A stretch of DNA of 64,000 nt from an uncultured Bacteroidota bacterium (GCA_937877085.1 CALEEY010000026.1:5002-69001); one strand, 5' to 3'; positions 6,234 through 61,203 are shown, counted from the first letter of the stretch. Notes: generated from the sequence alone by a model not told the origin. Made by a program: numbers and translations.

Positions 6234-7324
6234 GTCGCAGACAACGGACTTTTAGCTTTTCGCGATCTCCACGCGATGACTACCAAAGTAACGAGAGTCA
6301 GCGGGATGGCAAAATACAGCAGGGTGAAACTGAAAAGGGGGAGCGCATCATGTGAGGTGCTGGCCATGGTTAAATAGACCACATAGACCACGTAATAAGC
6401 AAAAAGCACGATTCCTTCCCATCTTGAAATGATTCCACCAGAGAAAAATATGGGGAGGCAGGCAAACGCCACCACGAACATAATGGGCAGATCAAACCCC
6501 GCAAATGAAGCCGTCAAGTCAATCCCAGAGGGGGCCACGAGGCTCGAAAGCCCAAGGACACCCAGAATGTTGAACAGATTGCTACCCACCACATTGCCGA
6601 CAGCAATATCACGCTCTCCTTTAATGGTTGCAACAATGGACGTTACAACCTCTGGAAGTGAGGTCCCAGCAGCAACTATGGTAAGCCCAATAACGATTTC
6701 ACTCACACCAAAAAGGGTCGCAATCCAAACGGCCCCGTCAACCAGCCATTTTGATCCTAGCACGAGTAATCCCAGACCGAGGACTACCAATGCAACATTT
6801 TGAATGAACTTGGGCGGCGCTTTCGTTTCTTCACTGCTAGGTGGTCCATCCATTCCTACGCTGGGCTCAGGCCCGGAATCCGTACGTTTCCCTTGGTAGA
6901 TCAGGAAGACGATATAAGATATTAAACCAGTTAAAAAAACGAGTCCTTCAAGCCAGCTGTAGTGCTGATCTAACCCAAAAAACCAGGCAAGCGCGGATGC
7001 CCCAATCATGAGCGGCACATCCAAACGAATAAGTTGCTGCGAGACCACGAGTGGCGCAATTATAGCAGACACTCCCAATATGAAGAGCACATTGAAAATG
7101 TTGCTCCCAACCACATTTCCCATGGCAATGCCTGCCTGCCCAGCGTTTACAGCATTAACGCTTACCGCCAATTCGGGAGAACTAGTACCAAATGCCACAA
7201 CTGTTAGGCCAACAATCAAAGGCGAAATTCCCCAAGCGGTTGCCATGCGCGAGGCGCCACGGACCAACATATCGGCTCCGAGAATGAGTAGGCCCAATCC
7301 GACAATCATTAGGAAGATTTCCAT
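6230..7324 (-). CDS. Ca2+/Na+ antiporter (CaCA family, YrbG-like)
   Basis: Multi-pass membrane protein with two alpha-repeat signatures (GTSSPELAVS...GNVVGSNIFN and GTSLPEVVTS...GNVVGSNLFN). It overlaps the ridA stop by 4 nt. Confidence 0.85.
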   Translation of the reverse strand: MEIFLMIVGLGLLILGADMLVRGASRMATAWGISPLIVGLTVVAFGTSSPELAVSVNAVNAGQAGIAMGNVVGSNIFNVLFILGVSAIIAPLVVSQQLIRLDVPLMIGASALAWFFGLDQHYSWLEGLVFLTGLISYIVFLIYQGKRTDSGPEPSVGMDGPPSSEETKAPPKFIQNVALVVLGLGLLVLGSKWLVDGAVWIATLFGVSEIVIGLTIVAAGTSLPEVVTSIVATIKGERDIAVGNVVGSNLFNILGVLGLSSLVAPSGIDLTASFAGFDLPIMFVVAFACLPIFFSGGIISRWEGIVLFAYYVVYVVYLTMASTSHDALPLFSFTLLYFAIPLTLVTLVVIAWRSRKAKSPLSAT

Positions 7325-36111: not shown

Positions 36112-38091
36112 TCACTCACGCACCGACCAAATCGACCCGTTGGCTTTCGCGAGCACATACAGTTCGCCTGCTGCATCCATCCCAAATCGAAGTTCTGTTC
36201 GAGGCCTGCCAGCAAAATGTTCAAACGTTTGCTCCACATTTTTAGCATCCATCAGGATGGCGCGCTGAATCTTGGCGTCCGCTTGTCCCAACTGAAGGTC
36301 CTCGGCATCTACGTAATAGATTCGGCCCGAAATCAGGTCCCCAAACACATATTTCCCGTAGAGCGCGGGGATACGTTTCCCTCGATATACGAAGCCTCCA
36401 ACCAAAGCAGCCAGCTCATCATGGTCTATACGGGCAACGGGATCCGTAAAGTCATCGTCTGAGCTGCGGCCTTTTGGATACACACTAGACGGGTCCCCTT
36501 TTTCGTATCGAAATCCACCTTCGCGATGATTCCAGCCGTAATTCGCTCCGCTTTCGCCCAAGAAAATACTTTCGACCTTAGCTTCACCAATGTGACCAAT
36601 AACCATGGTTCGCGTGAGCGTGTCCCAGCTAAATCGATGGGGATTTCGTAGCCCCAACGCCCATATTTCGCCCAAAGCATTCGTTTTGCCCACAAAAGGG
36701 TTGATCGACGGAATTCCGTACTGCCCATTGAGGCTGTTTTTGCCCAAAGGATCGATTCGAAGAATTTTCCCGGTGTGGGCGCCAAGCGATTGGGGGTTTT
36801 CTGTCTGAAAACCAGGTCTTTCTCCGTCGCCAACAGACAGGTAAAGAAGACCGTATTCGGAAGTCCCTTTCTTGGCCGTCGGATCAAATGCAATTTGTTG
36901 AATGCCGTGTAAGGTGGAATTGAATCCCAACCGGAGCACCTCTCTTACGGGTCCTTTGAATGTGGATGCCCCCGGATCTGCCGCCGTCCATTCCAACAGA
37001 ACTCCTTGAACAGCATCTCCTTCGCCATTGGAATAGTCCGGAATACGATCTTCTAGTGCTTTTCCAGCCTCCGTATGCACCGTGTACAGTTTTCCGTTCT
37101 GCGCAAACTCCGGATGAAATGCGAAGAAGGTGAAACCACTCGCCAACCCAGGATCGTCAATAAAGCTTGGGTTCTGACTACGCAGGTTGAGGTATTCGCT
37201 CACCTTTCCATCAACAATCGCGTACAATTTTCCTCGCAAATCATTGACAAATACTCGATTGGAGTCACCGTTTGCATACCCGAGATAGCCAATCCGCGCG
37301 AGGGGCCCGCCCGTGGCATCGCTCGCGGGAATAACGGCGAAGGGCTCCAGTCGCAGGCTCAGGCTACCCACTTCGATGGCTTCGGGAATGGGGTCTATAA
37401 GGGGAGCAGCGCCACTTACCAGCCGAATGTCCCGAAAAGCCCCTGTATCGTCGAAAGATCCAAATCCTATGGCTCCTTTTTTGAATGTCTTATCGGTCAT
37501 GGTCATGAGTGGCGTGCGCAGATCGTCCACATAAACCTGTGTCTCCCCGGTCGCGACGTTCCGATCTACCCGAATTTGATGCCATTCGGTGTCAGAAAGC
37601 CGGGTTTCTGGAGGATTTTCGAGCCCTTGATCGTCAATTCGGCGGCGGTCGGCATGATCTACGATGAAAATGCCGTTATGGGGCATCACCGTGTTATCGT
37701 TCGACAGGTGGGCATAGTAAAACTTTTCTGGAGACTGGTAACCAAAAACGATGATCACGTCCCGGCCCACGATGTCTGGACTCGTAGAAGATTTTACAAG
37801 AGCCGTTAAATGAAAGTTGGTCAACGATCGCGTGCCCCTAGCCGTAGCTAAGGCGCCCGGGCGCCGAATAGCCTCGGGAATCGAACCAGGCGCAATCAAT
37901 TCAAGCACACCATCCTCAAACGTCCAAAGTGCCGGCTCTTCAAAGTCCCATGCTTCTGGAGTTGTCATTTGGCCATCGGATAGCGATTCCGCAAATTCAT
38001 TCGACGGGGAATCATCTTTCTGCGTACAACCTGAGATGCACGGAAAAATGATACCGGAAACGAGAATCAGAGACAAAAGAGAACGATTCAT
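36112..38091 (-). CDS. Lipoprotein: N-terminal DUF1080-like (3-keto-disaccharide hydrolase/LamG fold) domain fused to a PQQ-dependent sugar (sorbosone/glucose) dehydrogenase-like beta-propeller
   Basis: Lipobox (CISGCTQ). The N-terminal WTFEDGVLEL...LTNFHLTALVKSS segment is followed by C-terminal GLRNPHRFSWD and GANYGWNHREG motifs typical of soluble quinoprotein dehydrogenases. Confidence 0.6.
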   Translation of the reverse strand: MNRSLLSLILVSGIIFPCISGCTQKDDSPSNEFAESLSDGQMTTPEAWDFEEPALWTFEDGVLELIAPGSIPEAIRRPGALATARGTRSLTNFHLTALVKSSTSPDIVGRDVIIVFGYQSPEKFYYAHLSNDNTVMPHNGIFIVDHADRRRIDDQGLENPPETRLSDTEWHQIRVDRNVATGETQVYVDDLRTPLMTMTDKTFKKGAIGFGSFDDTGAFRDIRLVSGAAPLIDPIPEAIEVGSLSLRLEPFAVIPASDATGGPLARIGYLGYANGDSNRVFVNDLRGKLYAIVDGKVSEYLNLRSQNPSFIDDPGLASGFTFFAFHPEFAQNGKLYTVHTEAGKALEDRIPDYSNGEGDAVQGVLLEWTAADPGASTFKGPVREVLRLGFNSTLHGIQQIAFDPTAKKGTSEYGLLYLSVGDGERPGFQTENPQSLGAHTGKILRIDPLGKNSLNGQYGIPSINPFVGKTNALGEIWALGLRNPHRFSWDTLTRTMVIGHIGEAKVESIFLGESGANYGWNHREGGFRYEKGDPSSVYPKGRSSDDDFTDPVARIDHDELAALVGGFVYRGKRIPALYGKYVFGDLISGRIYYVDAEDLQLGQADAKIQRAILMDAKNVEQTFEHFAGRPRTELRFGMDAAGELYVLAKANGSIWSVRE

Positions 38092-38137: not shown

Positions 38138-39520
38138 TTACCGATCTTGAATAATCGCTACGACCTGGGTATCAAAGTTTTCATAGGTCGTGTAGGAGCC
38201 TCGAAGCCACAGTACAACCCGTCGCTCGCTTTTCCACGACGGGATGATGGGTCGAATATTATCCATGGTCGAATGTTGGGTGATGGCCTTCCAATCAAAC
38301 GATTTTCCACCGTCAATCGAAGTGCCTTCAAAGAGTTCATAATGACGTTTTTGATCGGCCCGGCTCACCAGGGCTTCGCCGGTAACCGGGTCGGCATTGG
38401 TCGAGATCACCAAGTGATTGACATTTTCGGGGTCTATGGCCACTAAACCCGTGTAATCGTCCTCAAACGGATATAGTCTTTCACCAGCAAATGCAATCTC
38501 GTGCTGCTGCCAGCCATCTCCGGAAAAACGGGCCAAATGAAAACGGTGGTCTAAACCAGCCAATTTGGGTGGATGGTCTCTCCCATCCTTTTGCACCGAA
38601 AACGCGATTACCGGTTGGTCCTGCTCATCCACGGCGACATCGGCCATCCACGCCACATTGTCGGGATTACCGGCAAAAACCAATGTAAGCGCCGACGGCG
38701 GGACGGCATCTTGATCGCGTAATTCCGCGTCTAGGACACTACCGAACGAGTCGTAGAGCGAGTGACCGTCCGTGGAGCCATGATAGATTGAATTGTCAAA
38801 GTTACGGGGATGCTGATCCGTTGCGACAACGTGAATCCTAGACCCGTCGCGGTTGTCCACATACTTTAGGTACGGACGACCTTCGCTACTCAACAAACGA
38901 CCACCATACTGCCACTGACCCCCCAAGGAGTCAAGGACTAAAAAATTTGGATTCCATCCTCGCGAGCGGGAAAAGTCGTATAGCTTGCGATCCTTGCCGA
39001 CTCCGGCTGTCAGCAGGTTGTTGTACGTGACATTGGCCTCGTCTTGATAGATCTCCAGGTCGTTCCATTTTTGGGGATTATGGGCTTCAGAATGGGCCAC
39101 GTAAACGTTTTTATCGCTACCGTGTCTTGAAAAAAGGGCGAGAACCTGTCCGTTTTCCTGTTGAAACAGCGCCGCCGCGTTGTGATCGTCTTGGCCAAGG
39201 CGGTCATACAGTTCTACGGCTCCGCCCTGTCCACTGTTCAATCCGAACCAGTGAAAGTCCAGATCTCCTTGCTCGGTCGAATCCCGATCCGAGGCAGAAA
39301 TCGACGTGAACATGAGCATGGGTTCGTCCGGATGGTTTGCATCGACAATGGCGCGCTCATCTTGAAACCAACACCACGCTCCGTTGGGACTGCCAGCCGT
39401 TCCGGTGAAGATAATCAGGTCGCCCCGAACAAAATCGATCGCATGTTCTTGGGGTTCGTCCGGTCCACAGCCAGCGAATACCACGATCAATAAAACCACT
39501 ACACTCCTTTGGATCATCAT
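38138..39520 (-). CDS. Hypothetical lipoprotein, possibly a BNR_4/sialidase-like beta-propeller
   Basis: Lipobox (VFAGCGPD). WCWFQDERAIVD and DDHNAAALFQQENGQVLALFSRHG weakly resemble BNR-4 repeat proteins. The function is uncertain. Confidence 0.35.
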   Translation of the reverse strand: MMIQRSVVVLLIVVFAGCGPDEPQEHAIDFVRGDLIIFTGTAGSPNGAWCWFQDERAIVDANHPDEPMLMFTSISASDRDSTEQGDLDFHWFGLNSGQGGAVELYDRLGQDDHNAAALFQQENGQVLALFSRHGSDKNVYVAHSEAHNPQKWNDLEIYQDEANVTYNNLLTAGVGKDRKLYDFSRSRGWNPNFLVLDSLGGQWQYGGRLLSSEGRPYLKYVDNRDGSRIHVVATDQHPRNFDNSIYHGSTDGHSLYDSFGSVLDAELRDQDAVPPSALTLVFAGNPDNVAWMADVAVDEQDQPVIAFSVQKDGRDHPPKLAGLDHRFHLARFSGDGWQQHEIAFAGERLYPFEDDYTGLVAIDPENVNHLVISTNADPVTGEALVSRADQKRHYELFEGTSIDGGKSFDWKAITQHSTMDNIRPIIPSWKSERRVVLWLRGSYTTYENFDTQVVAIIQDR

Positions 39521-42722: not shown

Positions 42723-43913
42723 CTATAGACTTTGTGCGCCCTCCAAAAGAGCCATAATCTGTTTTAGAGCCTTCAATCGCTCGACGTAATATTCCTTCAC
42801 TTCTGGGGAATCTGACTCCGCGACCTTCTTTTCGCCCGATTGACTCGATTCGTAGACTAAATCGAATGCCGTTTGGCCTTGATCTGTTTCTAACTGCTGA
42901 TTAACGCCGCGCTTTAGTAAAAGCCGAACTTGATCGACATAGGCAAAAGAAGCGGCAATGTGGAGCGCATTCTGACCATTTCTGTCCCCAAATTCTGGAT
43001 CTAGCCCGCGGTCCAAAAACTCTGCCAACAAAGATAGATCGTTAGCAAACACCACGGATGTGGCTACATGATAGCGCTCGCTACGGGCGAGTGACGGATC
43101 TGCCCCCAAGTCCAATAACGTGCGTAAGCAGCCTCCGTTTTCAAGTCGGTGCGCGCGCGTTAGCGCTACAAACAAAGGGGAGGCACCATCGGGGTCAGGT
43201 CTATTGGCGACCTCCGGGTCTTTTTCGATGGCCTCCTTAAGCTCGTCACATTTCCCTAAACCCACAAGATTGTACGAGGTGAGCGTCGCATGATTAGCAA
43301 GACTGAGTGCGACCAATTCATTTTGCCGGACGCTCGGATGGTCCAAAATTAGTGAAAGAGGAGTTTGTCCATTTTCAAACGGTTCACTTAATAAATCGGG
43401 GCGTTGCGGCAACATCGCTTCAATTTCTGCTACTGCTTTGGTGTCCAAGTAATGGCGTCTAAACGAATCAAATTCCAATAACTCCAGCGTCGCGTCCAGC
43501 GCGCTTTCTCCTCCAATCATCGTTTCCAGGTATTTTACATAGGTTTCCTTGCTTTGAGGACTCGAAATGCGGTCCTCTTCACGGCCATTGTTAAAAAACA
43601 CGATCGTTGGGACCCCATTGACCCGCAAGTCGGCGTAAATACCTGGCGACTGGTCAATGTCCACTTTGACAATCTTTGCGCGATCCCCCATTTCTGATAC
43701 GAGGCTCTCCACAACGGGGTCAACTTCCTTACAAGGGCCACACCAAACTGCCGTAAAGTCTACTAAAACCGGAACAGAAGCTTGCATAACCTCAACTTCA
43801 AAACTTTGGTCGGTCACATAAGCAACGGTGTGGGCCATCCCCTCTGTATCGCTACTTGGAGCCGCGCAGCCGGCCAGTATGCAAAAAACAAAGATCCCTA
43901 CAAATGGCTTCAT
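42723..43913 (-). CDS. Lipoprotein with an N-terminal thioredoxin domain and C-terminal ankyrin repeats
   Basis: Lipobox (ILAGCAAP). It has a VLVDFTAVWCGPCK redox motif and GVPTIVFF. Ankyrin-type repeats are visible (DGASPLFVALTRAH...LLDLGADP; GQNALHIAASFAYVDQVRLLLKRGVN). Confidence 0.7.
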   Translation of the reverse strand: MKPFVGIFVFCILAGCAAPSSDTEGMAHTVAYVTDQSFEVEVMQASVPVLVDFTAVWCGPCKEVDPVVESLVSEMGDRAKIVKVDIDQSPGIYADLRVNGVPTIVFFNNGREEDRISSPQSKETYVKYLETMIGGESALDATLELLEFDSFRRHYLDTKAVAEIEAMLPQRPDLLSEPFENGQTPLSLILDHPSVRQNELVALSLANHATLTSYNLVGLGKCDELKEAIEKDPEVANRPDPDGASPLFVALTRAHRLENGGCLRTLLDLGADPSLARSERYHVATSVVFANDLSLLAEFLDRGLDPEFGDRNGQNALHIAASFAYVDQVRLLLKRGVNQQLETDQGQTAFDLVYESSQSGEKKVAESDSPEVKEYYVERLKALKQIMALLEGAQSL

Positions 43914-44127: not shown

Positions 44128-44841
44128 ATGCGCTATCCCATCTGCCTTTTACTCTTGGGGCTCTTCGTCCTTCCCTTTACGGCTACTGCTAGCGCTCAAA
44201 GTAGTCCTCCGGAAGGTTTTTCAGCCCTGTTTAACGGCGAAAACCTGGATGGTTGGTTCGGACACGGTACAGAGGACCCGCGCATGCTATGGAACATGTC
44301 CGCTGAAGAGCTGGAGATGCACAAAGAAAAGACCCGGGAGGACGTTCGGCAGCACTGGAGCGTAGAGAATGGCGAACTAGTCAACGACGGCGAGGGACTT
44401 TACCTTACCACCGACAAAGATTATGGCGACTTCGAGCTACTCCTCGAGTACAAGACGGTACCGCTAGCGGACAGCGGTATTTACCTACGCGGCGTCCCTC
44501 AGGTGCAGATCTGGGATACGACTAAAGAAGGTGGGAAGTGGGACTTAGGTGCGGATAGAGGGTCAGGCGGATTATGGAATAACAGCGCCGGAGCCCCCGG
44601 AAAGGACCCTTCGAAACATATGGACAAATCGTTCGGCGAGTGGAATAGCTTCCGCATCCTCATGATCGGAAATCAGGTCACTGTTTATTTCAACGGTGTG
44701 AAAGTCGTCGACCAAGCTGTGATGGAAAACTACTTCGATCGCAGTATCCCAATCTTCGAGAACGGACCGATCCAGCTACAAACCCACGGGGGTGAAATCC
44801 GTTGGCGCAATGTGTTTATCCGCGAGATCGCAAAGAAGTAA
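44128..44841 (+). CDS. Secreted DUF1080 (3-keto-disaccharide hydrolase family) protein
   Basis: Signal peptide, then FNGENLDGWFG, WSVENGELVNDG, YGDFELLLEYK, DSGIYLRG and GPIQLQTHGGEIRWRNVFIREI, which together form the canonical DUF1080 pattern. Confidence 0.8.
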   Translation: MRYPICLLLLGLFVLPFTATASAQSSPPEGFSALFNGENLDGWFGHGTEDPRMLWNMSAEELEMHKEKTREDVRQHWSVENGELVNDGEGLYLTTDKDYGDFELLLEYKTVPLADSGIYLRGVPQVQIWDTTKEGGKWDLGADRGSGGLWNNSAGAPGKDPSKHMDKSFGEWNSFRILMIGNQVTVYFNGVKVVDQAVMENYFDRSIPIFENGPIQLQTHGGEIRWRNVFIREIAKK

Positions 44842-44852
44842 TTTCTTAGGAA

Positions 44853-46835
44853 TTACCGCCCGACCACGCGCATAATGCCTCTCATGGTGAAGGAGTGGCC
44901 AGGGAAACTGCATACGTACATGTAGTCCCCGGGTTTATCCGGCACCGTGAAATAAATGGCTTCTGTAGCTCCGGGCTCCAGGAGCACCGTATGGAAAAGG
45001 ACCTCGTCAAGGTCTGGGATATAATTCTTTCCCGGCCCATCGAGTCCTAAAGCGATGGCTTTCTCGCCCACTTTGTCGGCGCTGCCAGGCGCTACAACGA
45101 GCAGATTGTGCATCATGCCGTCGTCATTGTCGAACACGATTTTCAACCGACTTCCCGCCTTGACATCAAATGTCGCGAGATTGAACTGTAGGCCCGGTTT
45201 CGTTCCAATGGTGATGGTCGCGTCTGGACCGCCTTTCCACTCGGCAGGCTGCGTTGTTACGCGCTTGCTCTTGGGTTTGGGCGCCTGATTCGTTCGATTT
45301 TCCGTCTTTGCAGGGCCTTTCTGATCCGTTTTCAACTCCATTCGAGGCCCACTAGGGATCTCGTTCAACGTATAGTAGGCTACGTCGTGCAAGAGCGGCT
45401 CAGCATCACCGGAAGATCGTATGCTCGTTAATTTAAGCTCATGGATGTACCCTTTACGCAGGCCATCGACGGCAATCCGAGCGCGAAGGCCATCATCCGA
45501 AACCTGAACGCCGCGAACAACTCCCGTTTCTTGATTGACGATATCACTGCCGTATGTGCTATGATACTGATACGTAAATCCGGTCACGTGGTAAGTGGAC
45601 GGATCCGCAGCAATATTGCGGTCAACTGGTTTCGTAAAGGTTACTTCAAATCCATCGGACCGTGCTTCAACCTTAAGGATTTCGAAAGGCGTTAGGCCAG
45701 TCCATTCGAGGCGTTGAAGGGCGTACGGCGCAGGGCCGGTCGAACCCCATCCGCGGCTGGTCATGCCGACGAACATCGAACCATCTTTGCCCCAAACCAT
45801 CCGCAAAACGCCTGAAGAGAACCCGTCACGAAAGGGGAAAGCCGCCCCTTGATACACGCCGTTTACTTTCTCTAGAAAAATGCGCATCACTTTGCTCTGG
45901 CCCTGATCCCCTACGAAAAGCTGCCCGGCAAAAGGCCCAAAAGCTCCTTTCGTGGTGTCTGCCAAGATACCGGACGTGGAAATTCCCATAATTGAGTGAG
46001 GTAGCCACACGGCAGGCATTTTCAAGTCTGGAACATTGGGGGCAACTTCGACCATGGGAAGACCTGAATCGGGCACATCTTCTGGTTTGAGCTTGAGCGG
46101 AGATCCCGGTAAGCCCGTCCAGCGCAAGCCCGCCGGGTTACCCACAAAATCGCCTCGTTCTACATGCGTTATATACCCAGAGCCAATCCAATCCCCCTGA
46201 TTCTCACCATAAAACACTTCGCCATCCGTATTTAATCCGAAACCAGCCGGGGAACGCATCCCTGTGGCATACGGGGTCATTTCGCCATCCGGAGTGATTT
46301 CCAGCATCCAGCCCCGCCATTTTGAGAGGCTAGCCCCGTAGCCGACCCACGCTAGGTTGAGGGTTACGACCATCGTACTGTCATTTCTGAACAACGGCCC
46401 GAACGAATATTCGTGATAGTTGCCGGCCAGCGGCCAAGTGTAGACCGTCTCATATCGATCGGCTCGGCCATCGCCATCGAGATCCCGGAGCCGGGTCAAT
46501 TCGCTACGTTGGGCCGCGTAGATGGCACCATTGTGATAGGCTAGACCTAGCGCCTCATGCAAACCATGCGCAAATCGTTTGAATTGAGGCCGCATCGAAC
46601 CCGTCATATAAGGATTCTTGATTAGCCAGACATCTCCCCGTCGGGTCGAAACGGCCAATTGACCATCGGGCAGGATGTCCAAGCCACCCACTTCAAGAAC
46701 AATGTCTTCCGGAATGGGAAGCGTGACCATTTTGTAGTAGTCGTTCTCCCCTTTCGTGACCTGGGCAAAAAGAGGTGTGGAGCAGAAGCAAACATAAAAT
46801 AATAGGATGCCTAGTGCTCGGGAAGTGCGAGCCAT
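44853..46835 (-). CDS. Secreted dehydrogenase-like beta-propeller protein with a C-terminal azurin-type cupredoxin domain
   Basis: The most plausible start is the Met at 46835 (MARTSRALGILLFYVCFCSTPLFAQ); the maximal ORF reaches 46928. The N-terminal region resembles the putative membrane-bound dehydrogenase domain of Planctomycetes and Bacteroidota (DLDGDGRADRYE). The C-terminus has MHNLLV ... YMYVCSFPGHSFTMRG, matching the azurin Cu ligands His, Cys, His and Met. Confidence 0.65.
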   Translation of the reverse strand: MARTSRALGILLFYVCFCSTPLFAQVTKGENDYYKMVTLPIPEDIVLEVGGLDILPDGQLAVSTRRGDVWLIKNPYMTGSMRPQFKRFAHGLHEALGLAYHNGAIYAAQRSELTRLRDLDGDGRADRYETVYTWPLAGNYHEYSFGPLFRNDSTMVVTLNLAWVGYGASLSKWRGWMLEITPDGEMTPYATGMRSPAGFGLNTDGEVFYGENQGDWIGSGYITHVERGDFVGNPAGLRWTGLPGSPLKLKPEDVPDSGLPMVEVAPNVPDLKMPAVWLPHSIMGISTSGILADTTKGAFGPFAGQLFVGDQGQSKVMRIFLEKVNGVYQGAAFPFRDGFSSGVLRMVWGKDGSMFVGMTSRGWGSTGPAPYALQRLEWTGLTPFEILKVEARSDGFEVTFTKPVDRNIAADPSTYHVTGFTYQYHSTYGSDIVNQETGVVRGVQVSDDGLRARIAVDGLRKGYIHELKLTSIRSSGDAEPLLHDVAYYTLNEIPSGPRMELKTDQKGPAKTENRTNQAPKPKSKRVTTQPAEWKGGPDATITIGTKPGLQFNLATFDVKAGSRLKIVFDNDDGMMHNLLVVAPGSADKVGEKAIALGLDGPGKNYIPDLDEVLFHTVLLEPGATEAIYFTVPDKPGDYMYVCSFPGHSFTMRGIMRVVGR

Positions 46836-46887
46836 ACGGGCTTCGAAGGTCGTGCGGGCCATACGGGCTTCGAGGGTCGTGCGGGCC
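46825..46887. repeat. 27-bp tandem repeat (2 full copies plus a partial one) at the 5' end of the cupredoxin-fusion gene
   Basis: GTGCGAGCCATACGGGCTTCGAAGGTC / GTGCGGGCCATACGGGCTTCGAGGGTC / GTGCGGGCC... Each full copy carries an in-frame ATG on the minus strand (Met at 46835 and 46862). Confidence 0.85.
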
Positions 46888-46932
46888 GCTGAGGCTTCCT
46901 GGGCTGAAAATGTAGATGTCGGTTTCATGGGA

Positions 46933-48840
46933 TTACCAAATCAAAGCGTAACGCACGGCAACAGGGCCCGTACTAAGTGAGATAGGGATGAGGAGTTCTT
47001 GGCCTTCGTCCGACGCGCGGACAACAGCCTTCCCGCCACCCGTATCGAGTACGCTTACGTAGTACATCCTTCCATCGATGCTGTAATTCCCATCAGCTAG
47101 TTGGCTGATCTCTTTTCCGGAGGCCACGCGAACCCAATAATGGCCCGCCACCTCCTCGGTGTTTGAAGCTCCGGGGCGAAGAGTCACCTCCCGGACAAGC
47201 TGCCGGCCACCTTCCTCCGGAAATAGATGATCGGAAACGGAGATATTTCTCATTTTGTAGAGAAAAGAAGGGTGACCATCCGAATCCAATTCATACCCTT
47301 TGAGGGTGTAGTCCATCCCCATGCTATCCGGCCAAACAGCGCTCGGAGAATCGAGCAGAGCTACGGCCGGTTTGCCCGAAAAATCGAGCACACTGCCCAG
47401 TGGAACAGCCAGTTGTTCGGTTCCTCGGCTATTCCACATATCGGTTGTCTCAATAAAACCACCCTTCCACGCTTGGATCAAAGCTCCCTGGTCCAAATCC
47501 ATCGCGTAGTGGACGCCACTGGGGTGCCCTACTGCAATCGTGCGAATCTTCTTTTTGCCGTCGTGGCGAATAAATCCCCTGATTAACTCGGGTTCTGAGG
47601 CCGCATCGACCGTGATGGCTGGTATCATGCGCGGCGTAGCTACCGATCCAGGCGCATTCAGGGACTGAAGCGGAGTGCCACCTCCTTCGACATAGAGGGC
47701 AATACTGGGCGCCGGTCCCGGTTGGTTTTTGAAAAATGACAGTGAAAACGGATGCGTTCCTGCTTGGAGTTCAACATCGCCTGTAACGGTTCGCTGCTTT
47801 CCTGGATGCTGGAACACTAAGCGATCTCCAATAACAAGCTCACCAGCCCCAATAGTCGCTCCCTGGTAATGTGGATCCCCGGTAACCCAATCGAGCATGA
47901 GTTGGAACCGATACAACCCGTCATAAGGAACTTGCATGCTGCCCGAGAAACGCATGGCAAATTGATCCCTAACTCCACTGGCGCGCCAATCTATTCCTTG
48001 CACTTCGCCTTCTTTTTGAGGGGTGATGGTGGTCCAGTCGGGTAGGGCATTGAAGGCCCCTTCCACGGATTGGAATCGCGTATCAGACAGCGTTACTGGA
48101 TTCGGTTGATAGTGTTTGTAGCGAATGTTGCGAATGGCTACCGGGCCATGGTCTCCTTGGATCATGAGCGGACCTAAGGCCTTTTCGTCTTGGAATGCGG
48201 CGGCCCTAGTTGGACCCGTTAATTCTACGTTTTCGTGAATCACCACGCCGTTGTGCACCACTTTCACCATTTTGGCGTTGGCAATTTTTCGCCCTTTATC
48301 GTCGAATCGAGGCGCTTGAAACTCGATTTGGAACGTCTGCCATAAACCAGGAGCCCGGCTAACATTCATGCTCGGCGGATGCCCTTGATATCCTTGTTGC
48401 CCGGCGGAACGAGACGGATCCCAGCGTTCGTAAATACCGCCGGCATCCGCATACGTGGGATTAGTGACGCCCCAGCTATCGAACATCTGGATTTCGTAAC
48501 GACCCTGCAAGTAAACGCCCGCGTTCGACCCTTTCGGCATCATAAACTCCAACTCGAGCTCCATGTCGCCATGCTCCCATTGGGTAAACAGATTGTCCCG
48601 CGCGCCATCGGACGGGAGGTTGACCAGTACACCGCTGCCCGCCATCGAATGAAGGTCCTGCTCCTTACTGCGATCTGCCGATACTCCCCCAACGATTCGC
48701 CAATTAGCGGCTGCGGGCCGAAAACCGTCCATAGTAGACAAGGACTGACCGGACATAGGGAGGGATTGGGGCTGTGCGCCTGCGATAGGTGGCACCAACA
48801 ACAAAATGCCTAACATCAGGCATGAAAAGAGAAGCTTCAT
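46933..48840 (-). CDS. Secreted DUF1080 domain plus PA14-like domain protein
   Basis: Signal peptide (PPIAGAQ). WRIVGG...FTQWEHGDMELELEFMMPKGSNAGVYLQGRYEIQMFDSWG and GPLMIQGDHGPVAIRNIRY form the DUF1080 part. FAMRFSGSMQVPYDGLYRFQL is PA14-like. Confidence 0.7.
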   Translation of the reverse strand: MKLLFSCLMLGILLLVPPIAGAQPQSLPMSGQSLSTMDGFRPAAANWRIVGGVSADRSKEQDLHSMAGSGVLVNLPSDGARDNLFTQWEHGDMELELEFMMPKGSNAGVYLQGRYEIQMFDSWGVTNPTYADAGGIYERWDPSRSAGQQGYQGHPPSMNVSRAPGLWQTFQIEFQAPRFDDKGRKIANAKMVKVVHNGVVIHENVELTGPTRAAAFQDEKALGPLMIQGDHGPVAIRNIRYKHYQPNPVTLSDTRFQSVEGAFNALPDWTTITPQKEGEVQGIDWRASGVRDQFAMRFSGSMQVPYDGLYRFQLMLDWVTGDPHYQGATIGAGELVIGDRLVFQHPGKQRTVTGDVELQAGTHPFSLSFFKNQPGPAPSIALYVEGGGTPLQSLNAPGSVATPRMIPAITVDAASEPELIRGFIRHDGKKKIRTIAVGHPSGVHYAMDLDQGALIQAWKGGFIETTDMWNSRGTEQLAVPLGSVLDFSGKPAVALLDSPSAVWPDSMGMDYTLKGYELDSDGHPSFLYKMRNISVSDHLFPEEGGRQLVREVTLRPGASNTEEVAGHYWVRVASGKEISQLADGNYSIDGRMYYVSVLDTGGGKAVVRASDEGQELLIPISLSTGPVAVRYALIW

Positions 48841-49101: not shown

Positions 49102-51366
<2,265 letters not shown>

Positions 51367-55628: not shown

Positions 55629-57032
55629 GTGAACAGAGTTTTACTACTTCTAGCTGTCTTGGCATGCTCCGGCTTCCTCGAGCCCGCATTCGATAATGGT
55701 CAACCCAGCAGGCCCAATCTCCTGTTTATCATCACCGACGATCAGCGGTTCGACATGCTAGGCGTGGTCAATCCCATGCTCGAAACCCCGAACATGGATC
55801 AAATGGCCGCCAACGGAATCCGGTTTGAATACGCGTTCGTGACGACTCCCATCTGCGCCGCCAGTCGGGCCAGTATCTTGACGGGCCTCGTCGAGCGGAC
55901 CCATCAATACACATTTGGGACGCCGCCCCTAGCGACCACCCTGACGGAGCAAAGCTATCCTGCGTTGTTGAGGACGGCGGGATATCGAACTGGATTCATT
56001 GGAAAATTTGGCGTCAACACGGAGCCCGGCGTGGCGAAGGCCCTTTTTGACGTTTTTGAGCCCCTTTCCCCGGCGCCCTACCTCAAAAAACAGGCCGATG
56101 GCTCCTTTCGCCACCTTACGGACATCACGACCGACCGCGCGATTGAATACCTGAACGCGATGGACAAATCGATGCCCTTCGCCCTTACGCTTAGTTTCAA
56201 CGCTCCTCATGCCGACGATGGCGACGAGCGGCAGTTCATTTGGCCAGCCGCCATGGACAACAAGTATGTCGACGTAACCATACCAGATCCACCCTTATCC
56301 GACCCAGCGTTTTTCGAAGCACTCCCCGAATTCCTCAAAGACGCCTCGTTGAACCGCGAACGGTGGCATTGGCGGTTTGACACCCCCGAAAAGGCGCAAG
56401 GAATGACGAAAGGCTATTTTCGGATGATAAGCGGCGTAGATGCAGGAATCGGACGCGTAATGGAACGATTACAAGAATTGGATCTCGCTGATAACACGAT
56501 CGTGATTCTCATGGGGGATAACGGTTATTTCATCGGGGAACGCGGATACGCCGGCAAATGGCTCCCCTACGAGTTGTCAATTCGGGTTCCACTCATCGTA
56601 TTTGATCCACGGAGCGAACAGCGACTTCGCGGCAAAACGCCCGCCGAACCGGTTCTAAACATCGATATTGCGCCAACCTTGCTCGAAATGGCTGGTGTTG
56701 CAGTACCTCCAGAAATGCAAGGAAGAAGCTTGGTGCCTCTTCTTCGCGGAGAAGTGCCCCCGGATTGGAGGACCGATTTTTTTGTCGAACACCTCTACGA
56801 TCACCCCCAGATTCCAAAGCATGAAGGTGTTCGCGGAGAACGCTACAAATATGCTCGATATTTTGAGCAGACGCCCATCTACGAAGAACTGTACGATCTC
56901 TTCGAGGACCCCATGGAGACCATAAATCTAGCGGGAGATCCGGCCTATCTCGACATCCTCAACCAACTCAGACATCGAACGGACAAACTCGTGGCGGGTT
57001 ACGGCGGCCCGTATAAACCGGCGTCACGTTAA
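55629..57032 (+). CDS. Sulfatase (formylglycine-dependent, S1 family) lipoprotein
   Basis: GTG start and lipobox (AVLACSG). LLFIITDDQR, PICAASRASILTG (C-x-A-x-R variant of the FGly motif) and GDNGY are present. Confidence 0.85.
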   Translation: MNRVLLLLAVLACSGFLEPAFDNGQPSRPNLLFIITDDQRFDMLGVVNPMLETPNMDQMAANGIRFEYAFVTTPICAASRASILTGLVERTHQYTFGTPPLATTLTEQSYPALLRTAGYRTGFIGKFGVNTEPGVAKALFDVFEPLSPAPYLKKQADGSFRHLTDITTDRAIEYLNAMDKSMPFALTLSFNAPHADDGDERQFIWPAAMDNKYVDVTIPDPPLSDPAFFEALPEFLKDASLNRERWHWRFDTPEKAQGMTKGYFRMISGVDAGIGRVMERLQELDLADNTIVILMGDNGYFIGERGYAGKWLPYELSIRVPLIVFDPRSEQRLRGKTPAEPVLNIDIAPTLLEMAGVAVPPEMQGRSLVPLLRGEVPPDWRTDFFVEHLYDHPQIPKHEGVRGERYKYARYFEQTPIYEELYDLFEDPMETINLAGDPAYLDILNQLRHRTDKLVAGYGGPYKPASR

Positions 57033-59911
57033 ATGCTAGCCATAAATTGAAACCGACCTGAGCCGAGTTCGAATTCCACCATTCCCGGCCACCGACTGGG
57101 CAGCACCCGGACGAATGGCAACTCGGTAATCGGCTGTCCCCCCTCCTGCACCAATGATGCCTTCGCAGCCGGTATTTGCACGACCGCTTTCGTGTTTACG
57201 GGGATATTAACGTTCATCTGAATGGTGTCCCCCGTTCGGCGCCAACTGCACGATATGGGGCCGCGCACCGAAGCATAACTGACATCGAGCCATTCCAGGT
57301 CTTGAGACATAAACGGTGCGATACGAAACCTATTGAAGCCAATGGCCTCTCGCACGGGCTCAATTCCGCCCAATGATTTGAAAAACCACTCGCTCACTGC
57401 GCCAAACATAGGGTGATTTTGGGAATAGACATTATCGCTCTGAGCCCATGTCTCCCATAGCGTTGTAGCTCCATTTTCGAGCATATGCCCCCATCCTGGG
57501 TACGTATCCTTATCGACCATACGGTAAGCGACTTCCGAATGGCCCGTGCTCGACAGCATATTCAACAGATACTTCGTTCCAAAAATACCGGTGGCAATGT
57601 GGCCTTCGTGATCCACCAGCACCGCATCGACCATGCGTTTTACCGCGTTTTGAGCCTCGGAATCGGGGACGAGTCCCATATACAACGCAGCGGATTGCGC
57701 TGCTTGAGTTGCAATCCCAACGCGCCCTGTTCCCTGTTCCACGAAGCGCTCCACAAACGCCTGTTTGATTTGCCCCGAAAGTCCTCGGTAGCGTTCGATA
57801 TCGGCCTTTTTCCCGAGAATCACCGCAAATTCAGCCACCATCGCAGCCGCCTGGTAAAACTGCGCCGTGGCGATCAATTCGATGGGTTTGGGGTCCAGGC
57901 TTTCATGATCTCCGATGCATCGGTCTATGATGTAGTTCTCGGATGATGCTTCAAGCAAGTCCACCCAGGTCTTAGCGGCGTCATAATGGTCTTCTACAAG
58001 GCGAAGATCGCCATAATATTGAGCCAATTGGGAGACCAACAGCGGATGAGCCAGCCCCCAGCCAATTGGCCCGGCTCCCTTCGCATAGTTTTCGGCGGAA
58101 ATACCTACGTAAGGCGCCGTTTCGGTAAACCAGCCATCAAGGGAAGCATCTCTAAAATCAGACACGGATTTGGCATAAAACGTAGCCATGTCGTAGTTGT
58201 AGATGGCCATCTCGCTAGAGGCCACGATATCCCCACCATACTGGAATTTCTCGCGGGCGGGGCAGTCGGACTGTACGCTGAACAAATTGCTCAAAAAGGT
58301 CCATCTCACCATGTTGTGGATGCGATTGAATCGTTCATTGGAGCAACTGAATGTGCCGACCGATTCGACGTCGGTGTTGAGCCGGAGGCCTTCAACGGAA
58401 GAAAGGTCTGGCTTTCCTGGAAATCCGGTCACCTCTACGTAGCGAAATCCGTGAAAGGTGAAACGTGGCGTGTATTCTTCCATTTCGCCACCTCGAAGGG
58501 TATACGAGTTGGCCTGCCAGGCTATTTCGGGAGCTCCCGGGCCGCCTTGCGGCGTTCCGTCTTTCTTCAGGCCCTTTATTTGACCAGCTACAGCGGTCAT
58601 CGGATTAAGGGTTCCGTCGGCGTGGAGCAGTTCGCCCATACGCATCCGAACGGTGGTGCCTCTCGGTCCCGTGACCCGAAGCCGTGCCCATCCAGCAAAA
58701 TTCTGCCCAAGATCAAAAATGTACACGCCAGCCTCGACTTCGTGTAGGCTAATGGCAGATGCCCTTCTCGTTACCCGAATCGGTGGGATTGGAGAGGCCT
58801 GGCATCGTTCACCGGCTGCCGAACCGAAAGCGTCAGACGCTGAAGCCGTCGCCCGCCCCCATGCGGAGTCATCAAATCCCGGACGGTCCCAACCGGATTG
58901 TTCGAGTCTGGCATCGTACGATTCGCCGAGATAGACGCTATTTCGCAGCAGCGGTCCGGAGGTCATCCGCCAGGTGTCATCGCTTGCAATGCGCTGCATC
59001 GAGCCATCTTGGTATTCAACGACCATTTCAGACAAAAACTTTGGCCGGCCAACAGGAAGATGCTCGCGGGGGTTGATTCGGCCCCACATGCGCAGCGGCA
59101 GCGGATTATGCCACCCATTTCCCAGCATAACTCCGATAACATTTTCGCCCTCCTTCAAACGCTCGGTCACATCGTGTGTGGCGTAATACACCCGCTTTTC
59201 GGTGCTCGTCCACGCAGGATCGAGGACGTGATCGCTCGCTGCCGCGCCATTGAGTCGTAATTCGTGATATCCAAGCGCCGTGGCATATAGTCGCGCCCGC
59301 CTAACTGGCTTATTTACCCAAAAACTCCGGCGAATAAGCGGTGCCGGGTCATCCTCATAGTAACCTGCATCATCCTCTGGTAGTTCTTTTGCGTCCCCAA
59401 TCCAGTCCCCAATCCAGGCCCCAATCCAGGCCCCGGTCCAATCTGAAGCAGAAAGGAGCCCCATTTCCCACCAAGAAACCTCACTTTGGGTAGATTGTAG
59501 CCCCTCTTGGTCCCAAACTTCTACTCTCCAATAGCAACGGGTGCCACTTTTAAGGGACTGCCCTTGGTATTCCACGTGCAATTGACGGTCGGACACGACG
59601 CACCCGCTATCCCACAAATCGGGAGTATCCGACGAAAGCAACATCCGGGTCGTGGCAACCTGAATCCTGTAGGCCGATTGGACTTGATTGCGGGCATTTC
59701 CAACCGCTTTTAGCTTCCAACTAAGACGGGGCACAGCCGCGTCAATCCCGAGAGGTTCAGATAAAGATTCACATCGAAGGTCGACAGGCGCAATCGATGC
59801 TTCGCCTCGAGAGTCACGGCCCGAAAACGTTTCTGCTACAGACGTCGCTGAAAGGCTTACAACACCTACCCCCGACACCAACGATCCTTTCAGGAAATCT
59901 CTTCTGCGCAT
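57029..59911 (-). CDS. Alpha-L-rhamnosidase (GH78) with a twin-arginine signal
   Basis: MRRRDFLKGS TAT motif. The N-terminal LRCESLSEPLGID...PRLSW, the SDCPAREKFQYGGD motif (the DCPxRE of GH78) and a (alpha/alpha)6-type C-terminal region are present. Confidence 0.8.
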   Translation of the reverse strand: MRRRDFLKGSLVSGVGVVSLSATSVAETFSGRDSRGEASIAPVDLRCESLSEPLGIDAAVPRLSWKLKAVGNARNQVQSAYRIQVATTRMLLSSDTPDLWDSGCVVSDRQLHVEYQGQSLKSGTRCYWRVEVWDQEGLQSTQSEVSWWEMGLLSASDWTGAWIGAWIGDWIGDAKELPEDDAGYYEDDPAPLIRRSFWVNKPVRRARLYATALGYHELRLNGAAASDHVLDPAWTSTEKRVYYATHDVTERLKEGENVIGVMLGNGWHNPLPLRMWGRINPREHLPVGRPKFLSEMVVEYQDGSMQRIASDDTWRMTSGPLLRNSVYLGESYDARLEQSGWDRPGFDDSAWGRATASASDAFGSAAGERCQASPIPPIRVTRRASAISLHEVEAGVYIFDLGQNFAGWARLRVTGPRGTTVRMRMGELLHADGTLNPMTAVAGQIKGLKKDGTPQGGPGAPEIAWQANSYTLRGGEMEEYTPRFTFHGFRYVEVTGFPGKPDLSSVEGLRLNTDVESVGTFSCSNERFNRIHNMVRWTFLSNLFSVQSDCPAREKFQYGGDIVASSEMAIYNYDMATFYAKSVSDFRDASLDGWFTETAPYVGISAENYAKGAGPIGWGLAHPLLVSQLAQYYGDLRLVEDHYDAAKTWVDLLEASSENYIIDRCIGDHESLDPKPIELIATAQFYQAAAMVAEFAVILGKKADIERYRGLSGQIKQAFVERFVEQGTGRVGIATQAAQSAALYMGLVPDSEAQNAVKRMVDAVLVDHEGHIATGIFGTKYLLNMLSSTGHSEVAYRMVDKDTYPGWGHMLENGATTLWETWAQSDNVYSQNHPMFGAVSEWFFKSLGGIEPVREAIGFNRFRIAPFMSQDLEWLDVSYASVRGPISCSWRRTGDTIQMNVNIPVNTKAVVQIPAAKASLVQEGGQPITELPFVRVLPSRWPGMVEFELGSGRFQFMASI
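59395..59442. repeat. 12-bp in-frame tandem repeat (4 copies) inside the GH78 gene
   Basis: CCCCAATCCAGT / CCCCAATCCAGG / CCCCAATCCAGG / CCCCGGTCCAAT encodes WTGAWIGAWIGDWIGD on the minus strand. Confidence 0.85.
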
Positions 59912-59949
59912 ACTGTATTAACTCTTTTTGTTTGAAAGCACACCCCACG

Positions 59950-61203
59950 CTAATCATTGCCCAGTTGGGACCTGACGCGTTCTACGTAGTCACCACCACC
60001 GGCTAACCCATCCGCCAGCTTAGCATGATTCATGGCGCACTCCAGATCGGCCAGAGCCACGCACATGTCGACCATGGAGGCGTGTGCAGATTCGCTTTCT
60101 GGATAATACTCCGACGAAATTTCGAAAACAGCTCGAGCTTTTTCCGTCTGATTACTATCCATTGACATGTGCCCCAGCATGTCTAACAACTCCTCTACCA
60201 TGGGTGAAGCATACCCCATACCGGCTGTTTGCGCTTCGCTCTGGGCCCGAATCAGCGATACGATCTTCGCCGTAGACGTATTCGGGTCGTTGTATAGAGA
60301 GGGCGTTTTCAGCCGCCAAAAATCATACAAAAACACGAGCCCGTCCCGCATCCCAACTAGCGGAATGGAACCGTGGATGTCCTCCTCGTAAAACTTCCAA
60401 CCAAAATGCAGTCCCTGGGGAGGATCTTGCTCCAATTGATTCACAAATTGTAATGTCGAACGAACTCCTAAGCTGAATTCAGTCGTATCCGAGGACACAT
60501 TATCAATGGTAAGCTGATCCGAAAAGCGAACTATTTCGTTTGCCATAGAGACATGCAGTCCCTTACCCGCAAAATTCTGGGTCGCTGCTGTAGTCAAAGC
60601 TCCCTCCATCCAGCGCTGATCGTCCCAATCCAAACTCGGATCTATGGCCACGTAATTGGTAAACAATTCCGGATGATAGACGAGCGTATTGACCGCGAAC
60701 AAGCCTCCATATGAGTGCCCAATGAGTGTTCGATGGATAGTTGTGGGATATTTAGAGTCGATGAACGGAATGAGTTCATCAGCAATAAATGATGTAAACG
60801 CTTCAGAGCCTCCCGACTCGTCCGCCATCATCCCATTCCGGGATTCGATGACCGTCGGCGTCAGGTCTCTTGTTCGGTGAATTCTGTTCGAGATTCCGAC
60901 TACGATCATTTCGGGAAGTCGAAAAAAGTTGTAATACTCTTGAACCATGGCAAGTCCGCCCAAATGCACGCCGCCATCTAGGAGATAAATTACAGGATAT
61001 TGTTGCCCTTTGATCAGATTTCCCTGATTGGGAAGATGAATCCAAAATTGGCGCTGTTCCTTCAGAACGGTGGAATAAACACTGTCAACTTTTCCAACTT
61101 CAAAAAGAAAGCCCTCTTCGCTGCCAGATTGAGCCTTCACCTCCATGGAAACGCTCGTAAAAAGGACTAGGACGGTGACAAAACCTAAGAATCTGATCAT
61201 CAA
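59950..61203 (-). CDS. Secreted alpha/beta hydrolase (putative esterase family) with a helical C-terminal domain
   Basis: Signal peptide (SMEVKAQ), a YPVIYLLDG segment and the LIGHSYGG nucleophile elbow. Confidence 0.7.
   Translation of the reverse strand: MMIRFLGFVTVLVLFTSVSMEVKAQSGSEEGFLFEVGKVDSVYSTVLKEQRQFWIHLPNQGNLIKGQQYPVIYLLDGGVHLGGLAMVQEYYNFFRLPEMIVVGISNRIHRTRDLTPTVIESRNGMMADESGGSEAFTSFIADELIPFIDSKYPTTIHRTLIGHSYGGLFAVNTLVYHPELFTNYVAIDPSLDWDDQRWMEGALTTAATQNFAGKGLHVSMANEIVRFSDQLTIDNVSSDTTEFSLGVRSTLQFVNQLEQDPPQGLHFGWKFYEEDIHGSIPLVGMRDGLVFLYDFWRLKTPSLYNDPNTSTAKIVSLIRAQSEAQTAGMGYASPMVEELLDMLGHMSMDSNQTEKARAVFEISSEYYPESESAHASMVDMCVALADLECAMNHAKLADGLAGGGDYVERVRSQLGND

Follow-up and report, generated by a model that had tools for sequence, protein, structure and literature searches.

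A conserved gene pair encoding a six-bladed propeller with a tethered, predicted type-1 copper domain and a secreted DUF1080 partner protein

We analysed a stretch of 64,000 nucleotides from an uncultured Bacteroidota bacterium (GCA_937877085.1 CALEEY010000026.1:5002-69001, hereafter the window), in which three adjacent open reading frames (ORFs), here called g1, g2 and g3, lie at the coordinates and on the strands given for them in a preliminary description of the sequence (Table 1). That description had read the three genes as one unit, composed of a stand-alone DUF1080 protein, a dehydrogenase-like propeller ending in an azurin-type copper domain, and a DUF1080-PA14 fusion. Sec-type signal peptides, read from the sequence, are found at the N-termini of all three products. 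The subject of this work is the pair formed by g3 and g2, which are transcribed in this order from the same strand and which combine a propeller protein carrying a cupredoxin with a DUF1080 partner.

Table 1. Features of the g3-g2 locus and its neighbour g1 (positions in the window; aa, amino acids of the encoded protein)
Feature	Position	Strand	Description
g3	46933-48840	-	635 aa, secreted; signal peptide, DUF1080, PA14-like and C-terminal domains; first gene of the pair
g3 DUF1080 / ConA-like jelly-roll	48112-48723	-	aa ~40-243; PF06439
g3 PA14-like domain	47641-48105	-	aa ~246-400; optional in the family
g3 C-terminal all-beta domain	46936-47628	-	aa ~405-635; ~230 aa, unnamed; weak DUF6797 resemblance
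g2	44853-46928	-	691-aa ORF; propeller, Ig-like domain, linker, cupredoxin; second gene of the pair
g2 six-bladed beta-propeller	45684-46757	-	aa ~58-415; DUF7133/sGDH-like; AlphaFold and Foldseek
g2 Ig-like beta-sandwich	45354-45680	-	aa ~417-525; always after a g2-type propeller; AlphaFold secondary structure
g2 low-complexity flexible linker	45234-45353	-	aa ~526-565; ~40 aa; low pLDDT
g2 type-1 copper cupredoxin	44856-45233	-	aa ~566-691; auracyanin-like; predicted ligands H607, C673, H678, M682
27-bp tandem duplication	46825-46898		5' end of g2; 2.3-2.7 copies, 85-94% match; Tandem Repeats Finder and sequence
g1	44128-44841	+	237 aa, secreted stand-alone DUF1080; convergent with g2; neighbour outside the conserved unit

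Across genomes, g3 and g2 are found together. Of the 85 loci that we compared, which span at least five orders and two to three phyla (Rhodothermales, Balneolales, Cytophagales, Chitinophagales and Gemmatimonadota), 84 have g2 preceded, directly and on the same strand, by a g3 homologue. The strand is shared in all 79 ORF-called pairs, with a median gap of 13 nt, and on gene order and spacing we regard g3-g2 as a strictly conserved two-gene operon. The product of g1 is indeed a stand-alone, full-length DUF1080 protein, as had been proposed (PF06439, E 1e-41, 143.5 bits against a cut-off of 26.8 in the Pfam search). Since an orthologue of g1 adjoins the pair only in a 99%-identical twin contig (L001), the conserved entity is the pair and not the trio: the joint occurrence across genomes that had been expected of three genes holds for g3-g2 and not for g1, which is on the opposite strand. 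All other matches to g1 come from g3 homologues, whose DUF1080 domain is ~25% identical to it. After clustering of all flanking ORFs no third conserved gene emerged, the next clusters each being present in at most 9 of 84 loci. These sporadic neighbours comprise sulfatases, the most frequent of them (9/84 loci), and SDR, xylose-isomerase-like TIM barrel, M28 peptidase and TonB-dependent receptor genes. In the protein database, g2 has more than 7391 homologues and g3 has 4158, and in GTDB, scanned at one genome per species, at least 589 species genomes contain a g2 relative; the best 80 belong to Rhodothermales, Balneolaceae, Salinibacter, Cytophagales, Chitinophagaceae and Gemmatimonadota. The g2 architecture is thus not rare, and in some sources its homologues bear names such as 'plastocyanin/azurin family copper-binding protein' or 'glucose/arabinose dehydrogenase/azurin'.

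The 5' end of g2 carries a tandem duplication whose unit reads 'ATGGCCCGCACGACC...GAAGCCCGT', and the resulting in-frame EARMARTT repeats form an N-terminal extension of the longest ORF. In g2 orthologues the N-terminus is ~25-35 aa shorter, and they start near MARTSRALGILL, which is a good signal peptide. The true start of g2 is therefore probably the ATG at 46832, giving a protein of 659 aa, and the longest ORF would be ~32 codons too long; residue numbers are given here for the 691-aa ORF.

The AlphaFold (AF2) model of g2 (predicted local distance difference test score, pLDDT, 88.7; predicted template modelling score, pTM, 0.82) contains a six-bladed beta-propeller, in agreement with the propeller proposed in the preliminary description. 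Foldseek matches it with probability 1.0 to TTHA0570 (2ism, template modelling score, TM, 0.72), to PaeASD (3a9g, TM 0.74) and to soluble glucose dehydrogenase (sGDH, 1c9u), and, with the same probability, to the fungal AA12 structures 6jt5 and 6h7t. On this model, the best fold relatives of the propeller are the six-bladed sugar dehydrogenases of the pyrroloquinoline quinone (PQQ) type. At the level of sequence profiles, a 15-sequence propeller profile gave only a 20-residue local match to sGDH; after addition of 93 paralogues, hhalign aligned the 94-sequence profile to sGDH over 328 columns. In this weak alignment H172 of g2 corresponds to the catalytic His144, R225 to Arg228 and Q244-G245 to the Gln246-Gly247 of the PQQ/Ca loop, and R376 sits one column off Arg408. 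None of the 94 propellers deviates at R225, Q244, G245 or R349, and 85 of them have kept H172. The sGDH residues considered were the catalytic His144 and the PQQ/Ca ligands Arg228, Asn229, Gln246-Gly247-Pro248, Lys377, Arg406 and Arg408. The g2 propeller shares with sGDH (1C9U), Asd/YliI (2G8S), TTHA0570 (2ISM), PaeASD (3A9G) and AA12 the six-bladed fold and, apparently, the His, the Arg and the Gln-Gly, and PQQ dependence of g2 is plausible. Unlike soluble PQQ dehydrogenases and the fungal AA12 pyranose dehydrogenase CcPDH, it has no significant sequence similarity to solved members, and several PQQ ligands are unmatched. CcPDH, with its AA8 cytochrome and its CBM1, follows the same logic as g3-g2, a catalytic propeller joined to a tethered electron carrier and a carbohydrate-binding module; in g2 the carrier is copper and not heme b, and the carbohydrate modules are found on a second polypeptide, g3. 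Quinohemoproteins and the AA12-AA8 proteins show a comparable design of a dehydrogenase with a tethered electron carrier. Many Foldseek rows pointed to nitrous oxide reductase, a candidate that we rejected because the likeness concerns architecture only (TM ~0.25, root-mean-square deviation ~23 A); this enzyme has the propeller-plus-cupredoxin order of g2, and its catalytic domain and chemistry are unrelated.

The C-terminal domain of g2 is recognised as a cupredoxin by PF00127 (aa 577-688, E 4.6e-8, 33.8 bits against a cut-off of 21.2), is modelled as a Greek-key beta-sandwich and contains the motifs MHNLLV and CSFPGHSFTM that had been pointed out before. The four predicted copper ligands are invariant in 63 g2 homologues of 57-99% identity, and in the matches to PDB sequences their pattern, His ... 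Cys-x4-His-x3-Met, aligns to the ligands of auracyanin. A copper domain at the end of a propeller was thus correctly recognised in the preliminary description; its assignment to azurin needs to be revised, since the domain is nearer to auracyanin than to azurin both by sequence (auracyanins 6kol, E 6.5e-12, and 2aan, 4.5e-11; azurins ~1e-7) and by fold (TM 0.87 to 6kol and 2aan, and 0.80 to 1qhq). It also fails the azurin equivalog TIGR02695, with 36.4 bits against 105.1. The domain is joined to the rest of the protein by a linker in which aa 531-560 have a pLDDT of ~43-66 and no secondary structure in the AF2 model, and the same stretch is variable among homologues. In the couples methylamine dehydrogenase-amicyanin and aromatic amine dehydrogenase-azurin, a type-1 copper protein is the dedicated acceptor of a periplasmic quinoprotein, which is the role that we propose for the cupredoxin of g2. 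Unlike the copper proteins of these couples and the free auracyanins, which are separate soluble or lipid-anchored proteins, it is covalently tethered.

An exhaustive search with the g2 propeller returned 3356 cluster representatives at E <= 1e-3 and 520 at E <= 1e-30, and the architectures of the best 150 place g2 in a large family. Most of these representatives keep the core formed by the propeller and the Ig-like domain. A precomputed match to PF23500 is present on most g2 orthologues, and paralogues of g2 pass the DUF7133 threshold (P0241, 44.4 bits) and nearly pass that of PF07995 (20-24 bits against 25). The Pfam search found no GMC oxidoreductase domains in g2 and g3, and GMC genes are only sporadic in the neighbourhoods of the pair. 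The protein is neither a curated GSDH member nor a GMC glycoside 3-dehydrogenase, and we place it as a copper-bearing branch of the DUF7133, or 'PVC-type heme-binding', propeller family. The PVC-type heme-binding CxxCH proteins (TIGR02604 N-terminal 'membrane-bound dehydrogenase' domain, equal to Pfam DUF7133, HEAT repeats and cytochrome c; for example Lac161_ORF7, PMC5342196) have the propeller subfamily in common with g2, at 39-63% identity. They share with it the propeller-Ig core, the tethered one-electron carrier and a frequent association or fusion with DUF1080, PA14 or ThuA, and they are themselves essentially uncharacterised. Unlike them, g2 has a cupredoxin in place of heme c and no HEAT repeats, and DUF1080 and PA14 are encoded by a separate upstream gene.

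The relationship between g2 and its heme-bearing relatives is particularly close. The closest representatives (P0241, P0243 and P0247, with propellers 58-61% identical) carry a cytochrome c at aa ~565-660, exactly at the position of the g2 cupredoxin, and g2 itself contains no CxxCH cytochrome c motif, the cupredoxin standing in its place. In P0245 (59% identity) the cytochrome c is N-terminal. Heme variants of g2 keep the upstream g3 partner in three loci (L086, L087 and L088). The one-electron carrier, copper or heme, thus appears to be an interchangeable cassette on the propeller, and from this interchange we infer that the propeller is a redox enzyme and the tethered domain its electron outlet. 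Copper nitrite reductases with tethered redox partners (PMC9358711) offer a precedent for interchangeable tethered cupredoxin and cytochrome c, on a catalytic domain and with a chemistry unrelated to those of g2. The same interchange bears on the possibility that the propeller is a hydrolase, a lactonase or a lyase and that the cupredoxin serves for copper handling or has a structural role. Non-redox proteins of the sGDH fold do exist, HHIP being one and a lactonase of the propeller type that is fused to Cu/Zn-SOD another (PMC12362111). For a protein of the DUF7133 type, the published description is simply that of a beta-galactosidase (PMC5342196), and the conservation of the PQQ pocket is incomplete. 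However, without redox catalysis one can hardly account for a swap between type-1 copper and heme c at the same position in close paralogues, none of the four copper ligands varies, and we consider a non-redox propeller highly improbable.

The paralogues also connect the propeller with the domains of the partner protein. At least 24 of the 150 representatives are fusions of the propeller-Ig core with DUF1080, and two (P0268 and P0278) contain ThuA, a family tied to 3-keto-sugar metabolism. In P0252, P0282 and P0286, a cytochrome c, a PA14 domain, a domain resembling the C-terminal domain of g3 and a propeller are found in one chain. Between the DUF1080 domain of g3 and those fused to propellers, the identity is 32-36% (E 1e-27 to 2e-32); the C-terminal domain of g3 is 36% identical to aa 729-841 of P0252 and matches P0282 directly after the cytochrome c domain. 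Every domain of g3 and g2 is therefore found covalently linked to a g2-type propeller somewhere. Together with the conservation of the pair, these comparisons give strong support to the view, already expressed in the preliminary description, that one extracytoplasmic carbohydrate module would unite DUF1080/PA14 with an oxidising propeller and its built-in domain for electron transfer. None of the observations that this description had listed as contrary to it was made for g3-g2, where matches to cupredoxin and DUF1080, unvarying ligands and a conserved adjacency were all obtained.

The partner protein g3 (AF2 model, pLDDT 88.5) had been described as a DUF1080-PA14 fusion. Its DUF1080 is clear (PF06439, E 2.7e-26, 93.2 bits against 26.8). 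The PA14 assignment is sub-threshold in g3 itself (PF07691, E 0.024-0.074, 13-15 bits against 24) and holds at the level of the family, where 42 of 57 orthologues match PF07691 (best E 1.7e-12) and the family profile matches the PDB PA14 domains 6qdi and 9s8a at E 3.7e-7. In ~12 loci this segment is cleanly absent, leaving g3 versions of ~478 aa, so that PA14 can be considered a real member of the family architecture, and a dispensable one. What the preliminary description had missed is the C-terminal domain of 230 aa. It is present in 84 of 85 loci, and no other companion of g2 is as well conserved; PF20601 (DUF6797) matches it below threshold at aa ~445-535 in 13 of 57 orthologues. Foldseek relates the DUF1080 of g3 to the DUF1080 structures 4qhz, 3u1x and 3hbk, to the hydratases 8v31, 3osd and 9fbe, and also to CBM66, and its profile matches 4qhz at 8e-28 and BT2157/AL2 at ~1e-6 among PDB sequences. 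Residues N106, E116, Q118, Y137, K185 and Q228 are invariant in g3 and H231 is near-invariant; they stand in the same order as the active-site and metal residues considered for BT2157 (Glu103, Asn134, Glu164, Gln166, Tyr190, Lys245, Gln273 and His275), which is a match of order and not a residue-by-residue mapping.

DUF1080 proteins are known from 3-keto-glycoside pathways. Those of BT2156-2160 and AL1-4 combine a Gfo/Idh/MocA oxidase, a TIM-barrel lyase and a DUF1080 lyase/hydratase (bioRxiv 2024.03.25.586180), and in Caulobacter the partner of a periplasmic DUF1080 is LacABC, a cytochrome-linked lactose 3-dehydrogenase that feeds respiration through a dedicated carrier (PMC9007349), as we propose for g2. 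What g3-g2 would have in common with these pathways is the genetic coupling of a DUF1080 protein to a sugar dehydrogenase of the periplasm. Unlike in these pathways, the g2 enzyme is a propeller and not a Rossmann or FAD-GMC enzyme, its carrier is a fused cupredoxin, the DUF1080 of g3 belongs to a distant subfamily and is accompanied by PA14 and C-terminal domains, and there is no conserved TIM-barrel lyase or reductase partner.

The fold of the propeller and the nature of g3 are also where the serious one among three alternative explanations has to be weighed. According to it, g2 would be no more than a C1-oxidising aldose dehydrogenase like sGDH and Asd, producing sugar lactones and passing electrons to its own cupredoxin, and g3 would have no catalytic activity and serve as a lectin-like subunit for the recruitment of glycans or the anchoring of the enzyme; DUF1080 and PA14 would be binding modules, and neither 3-keto chemistry nor glycosidic cleavage would take place. 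The best fold matches (2ism, 3a9g and 1c9u) are indeed C1-oxidising aldose dehydrogenases, the jelly roll of DUF1080 is ConA-like and has CBM66 among its matches, the DUF1080 of g3 is remote from proven hydratases, and PA14 is a known carbohydrate-binding domain. However, fold does not dictate oxidation at C1, since the AA12 relatives oxidise sugars at C2/C3 (PMC4133262, PMC6881810). The recurrent fusion of the propeller with DUF1080 and ThuA, both families tied to 3-keto-sugar metabolism, would be left unexplained, and the (near-)invariant residues of g3 of the N-S-G, E-x-Q and Q-x-x-H type, which are characteristic of DUF1080, go beyond the needs of a mere tether. We regard a C1 dehydrogenase with a lectin-like partner as a real but rather unlikely possibility.

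The genomic context was considered in relation to substrate and direction of electron flow. In L087 and L088 (1-8076), P0245, a sister of g2 that bears cytochrome c, and its DUF1080+PA14 partner lie directly downstream of a SusC-like/SusD-like pair; this arrangement resembles a polysaccharide utilisation locus and would place the system after outer-membrane glycan import. It could also be considered that electrons flow in reverse, from the respiratory chain through the cupredoxin to the propeller, where 3-keto-sugars or some other oxidant of the periplasm might be reduced, or that the substrate is not a sugar at all, being an alcohol, a polyol or an aromatic compound. Such a scheme finds room in the facts that cupredoxins and c-type cytochromes can be donors or acceptors, that the context beyond the pair is variable (sulfatases, SDRs, peptidases) and fixes no substrate, and that a KatG gene adjoins the pair in the window. 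It is nevertheless improbable: the associations with DUF1080, PA14, ThuA and SusC/SusD all suggest carbohydrates, and in the weak alignment the catalytic His and the Arg of the sugar-oxidising sGDH are retained. Moreover, type-1 copper has a high redox potential, which makes it better suited to accept electrons from a cofactor at the level of a quinol than to supply them for the reduction of a ketone.

We therefore hypothesise, with a probability of about 0.5, that g3-g2 is an extracytoplasmic, most likely periplasmic, carbohydrate-oxidising operon in which a propeller with a tethered copper outlet works with a sugar-processing or sugar-binding partner. The sGDH-like propeller of g2, probably a quinoprotein of the PQQ/Ca type, would oxidise a sugar or a glycoside, at C3 or at C1; this is suggested by the sGDH-like fold and the retained His and Arg. 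The two electrons would then leave one at a time through the type-1 copper cupredoxin on its flexible tether of ~40 residues, which would donate to the aerobic respiratory chain in the way of free auracyanin, azurin and amicyanin. On the side of the obligatory partner, the DUF1080 of g3, with or without PA14, may process the oxidised product, or may bind and present the glycan, and the C-terminal domain probably docks g3 onto the propeller protein. The net outcome would be a non-hydrolytic, oxidative cleavage of glycosides whose reducing equivalents enter respiration; glycoside oxidation followed by DUF1080-mediated cleavage, as had been suggested before, may be what the module does. That 3-keto-glycoside chemistry is involved is proposed because of the propeller fusions with DUF1080 and ThuA and because of two precedents, LacABC and Lac161_ORF7, a protein of DUF7133-type propeller, HEAT repeats and cytochrome c for which lactose was reported to be cleaved in vitro (PMC5342196). 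In a recent survey, where copper domains are unmentioned, a role as respiratory dehydrogenases is also proposed for those six-bladed PQQ propellers of bacteria that have a cytochrome beside them or fused to them (bioRxiv 10.64898/2026.07.10.737718).

Several observations weigh against this hypothesis and explain why we do not hold it more firmly. Among the families put forward in the preliminary description, PF06439 and PF00127 score above their cut-offs, PF07691 stays below threshold in g3 and PF07995 (GSDH) is not matched by g2 in the Pfam search; DUF7133 reaches 23.8-24.8 bits in g2 against a cut-off of 27, and the TIGR02604 match is likewise sub-threshold. A search of PDB sequences with the g2 propeller profile gave no matches at E <= 10, and the hhalign alignment to sGDH has an E-value of 0.0017 and a probability of 15%. 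Within that alignment Asn229 of sGDH is replaced by Ser in g2, and Lys377 and Arg406 are without counterpart; on account of these differences and of the weakness of the alignment, we treat PQQ binding by g2 as no more than a plausible prediction. Many of the Bacteroidota host lineages are not known to make PQQ. The profile of the g3 DUF1080 reaches the hydratases 3osd, 8tda and 8v31 only over ~35 residues at ~1e-6; this is too remote for the active-site residues of BT2157 to be mapped onto g3, and the domain may be a lectin-like module instead of an enzyme. Because the genomic context beyond the pair is variable, it does not indicate a substrate, and one locus of the 85 (L083) is without a g3 homologue and has an unrelated protein there. 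Finally, no characterised member of the exact g2/g3 family was found in the literature. The system had been presented as under-described, and the literature bears this out: we found no paper on the g2 fusion or on the g3-g2 gene pair. Nor did we find one that brings together DUF1080 and a cupredoxin, auracyanin and sorbosone dehydrogenase, or a quinoprotein and a cupredoxin domain fused to it, and the databases hold only domain-derived names. Its distribution over so many species genomes does not fit a rare system.

Some further observations concern relatives and neighbours of the pair. In L083, a secreted protein of 577 aa without a Pfam match (5132-6865) is encoded upstream of an otherwise normal g2 orthologue; it was considered as a divergent g3 and rejected, as neither hhalign nor hidden Markov models (HMMs) showed a relation, and it may be a non-homologous replacement partner. 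Among the paralogues, P0258, P0264, P0266, P0272, P0277, P0284, P0294, P0268 and P0257 have a conserved N-terminal domain of ~220-260 aa with no Pfam assignment and with the motifs 'Y.K..TR.ET...', 'GPF', 'YPPE', 'G.DD...W.NG' and 'G.N.LL.K'. This domain may be a PA14/galactose-binding-like sandwich, and blastp found no relation between it and the C-terminal domain of g3. In the window itself, a catalase-peroxidase of the KatG type (49180-51366, plus strand; PF00141 on the identical gene of L001) is divergent from g3 across an intergenic region of ~340 bp, an adjacency that is not kept in other loci. On the other side of the three genes, at 42723-43913 (minus strand), lies a gene for a secreted 396-aa fusion of a thioredoxin domain with ankyrin repeats (precomputed Pfam matches on its identical copy in L001); for a thiol-disulfide protein of the periplasm this architecture is unusual. 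The window also contains a glycan-degradation cluster at 55629-61203, made up of an SGSH-like sulfatase, a GH78 alpha-L-rhamnosidase (960 aa) and an esterase, and a 675-aa ORF without a Pfam match at E <= 1e-5 (10764-12791, minus strand). Rfam and tRNA scans of the 64-kb window gave no matches.

A second propeller gene of the window, at 36112-38091 (minus strand, 659 aa), had been regarded as a DUF1080-sorbosone dehydrogenase fusion and as a fourth member of the group. The propeller part of this claim stands, as the protein is of the HHIP-like/GSDH type (PF07995, E 6e-28), with Hedgehog-interacting protein as its best PDB sequence matches. Its N-terminus is weakly ConA/DUF1080-like, with a DUF1080 match of E 1e-3 that is below the cut-off and no match to the g3-type DUF1080 profile. 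We rejected it as a fourth member, given its HHIP/GSDH type, its distance of 6 kb and its position beside a gene for a BNR_4 (sialidase-like) protein (38138-39520, minus strand), which adjoins it both here and in the twin contig L001. The two genes are a separate, uncharacterised two-gene arrangement.

The g3-g2 pair is thus widespread, strictly conserved and uncharacterised, yet built from familiar modules, and its chemistry is hypothetical. As a more specific form of our hypothesis, which we put forward tentatively as a possible and not as the expected outcome, the pair could be the copper-wired form of a large and functionally unassigned class of periplasmic, respiratory glycoside-cleaving systems, in which the propeller, with PQQ or another cofactor, would oxidise the glycoside at C3, DUF1080 would carry out elimination and hydration, and copper would pass the electrons to a terminal oxidase, heme c replacing copper in the cousins of g2. 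If this is true, glycan depolymerisation itself would yield respiratory energy, and a function would be provided for the whole expansion of DUF7133, or 'PVC-type heme-binding', proteins, which comprises thousands of proteins across Planctomycetota, Verrucomicrobiota, Bacteroidota and Gemmatimonadota. A non-hydrolytic, respiration-coupled route of carbohydrate turnover would be added in soils and oceans; the hosts of g3-g2, with at least 589 species-level genomes, are abundant soil, freshwater and marine heterotrophs. The natural swap of cupredoxin and cytochrome c on one core also provides a clean system for the study of tethered electron-transfer partners, and, should the mechanism hold, a sugar dehydrogenase with a tethered copper relay would be a candidate for direct-electron-transfer biosensors. 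The mechanism, if true, would likewise bear on the roles of DUF1080 and 'PVC-type heme-binding' proteins, and it would affect the prediction of carbohydrate-degrading capacity, because the g3-g2 genes are invisible to annotation based on glycoside hydrolases.

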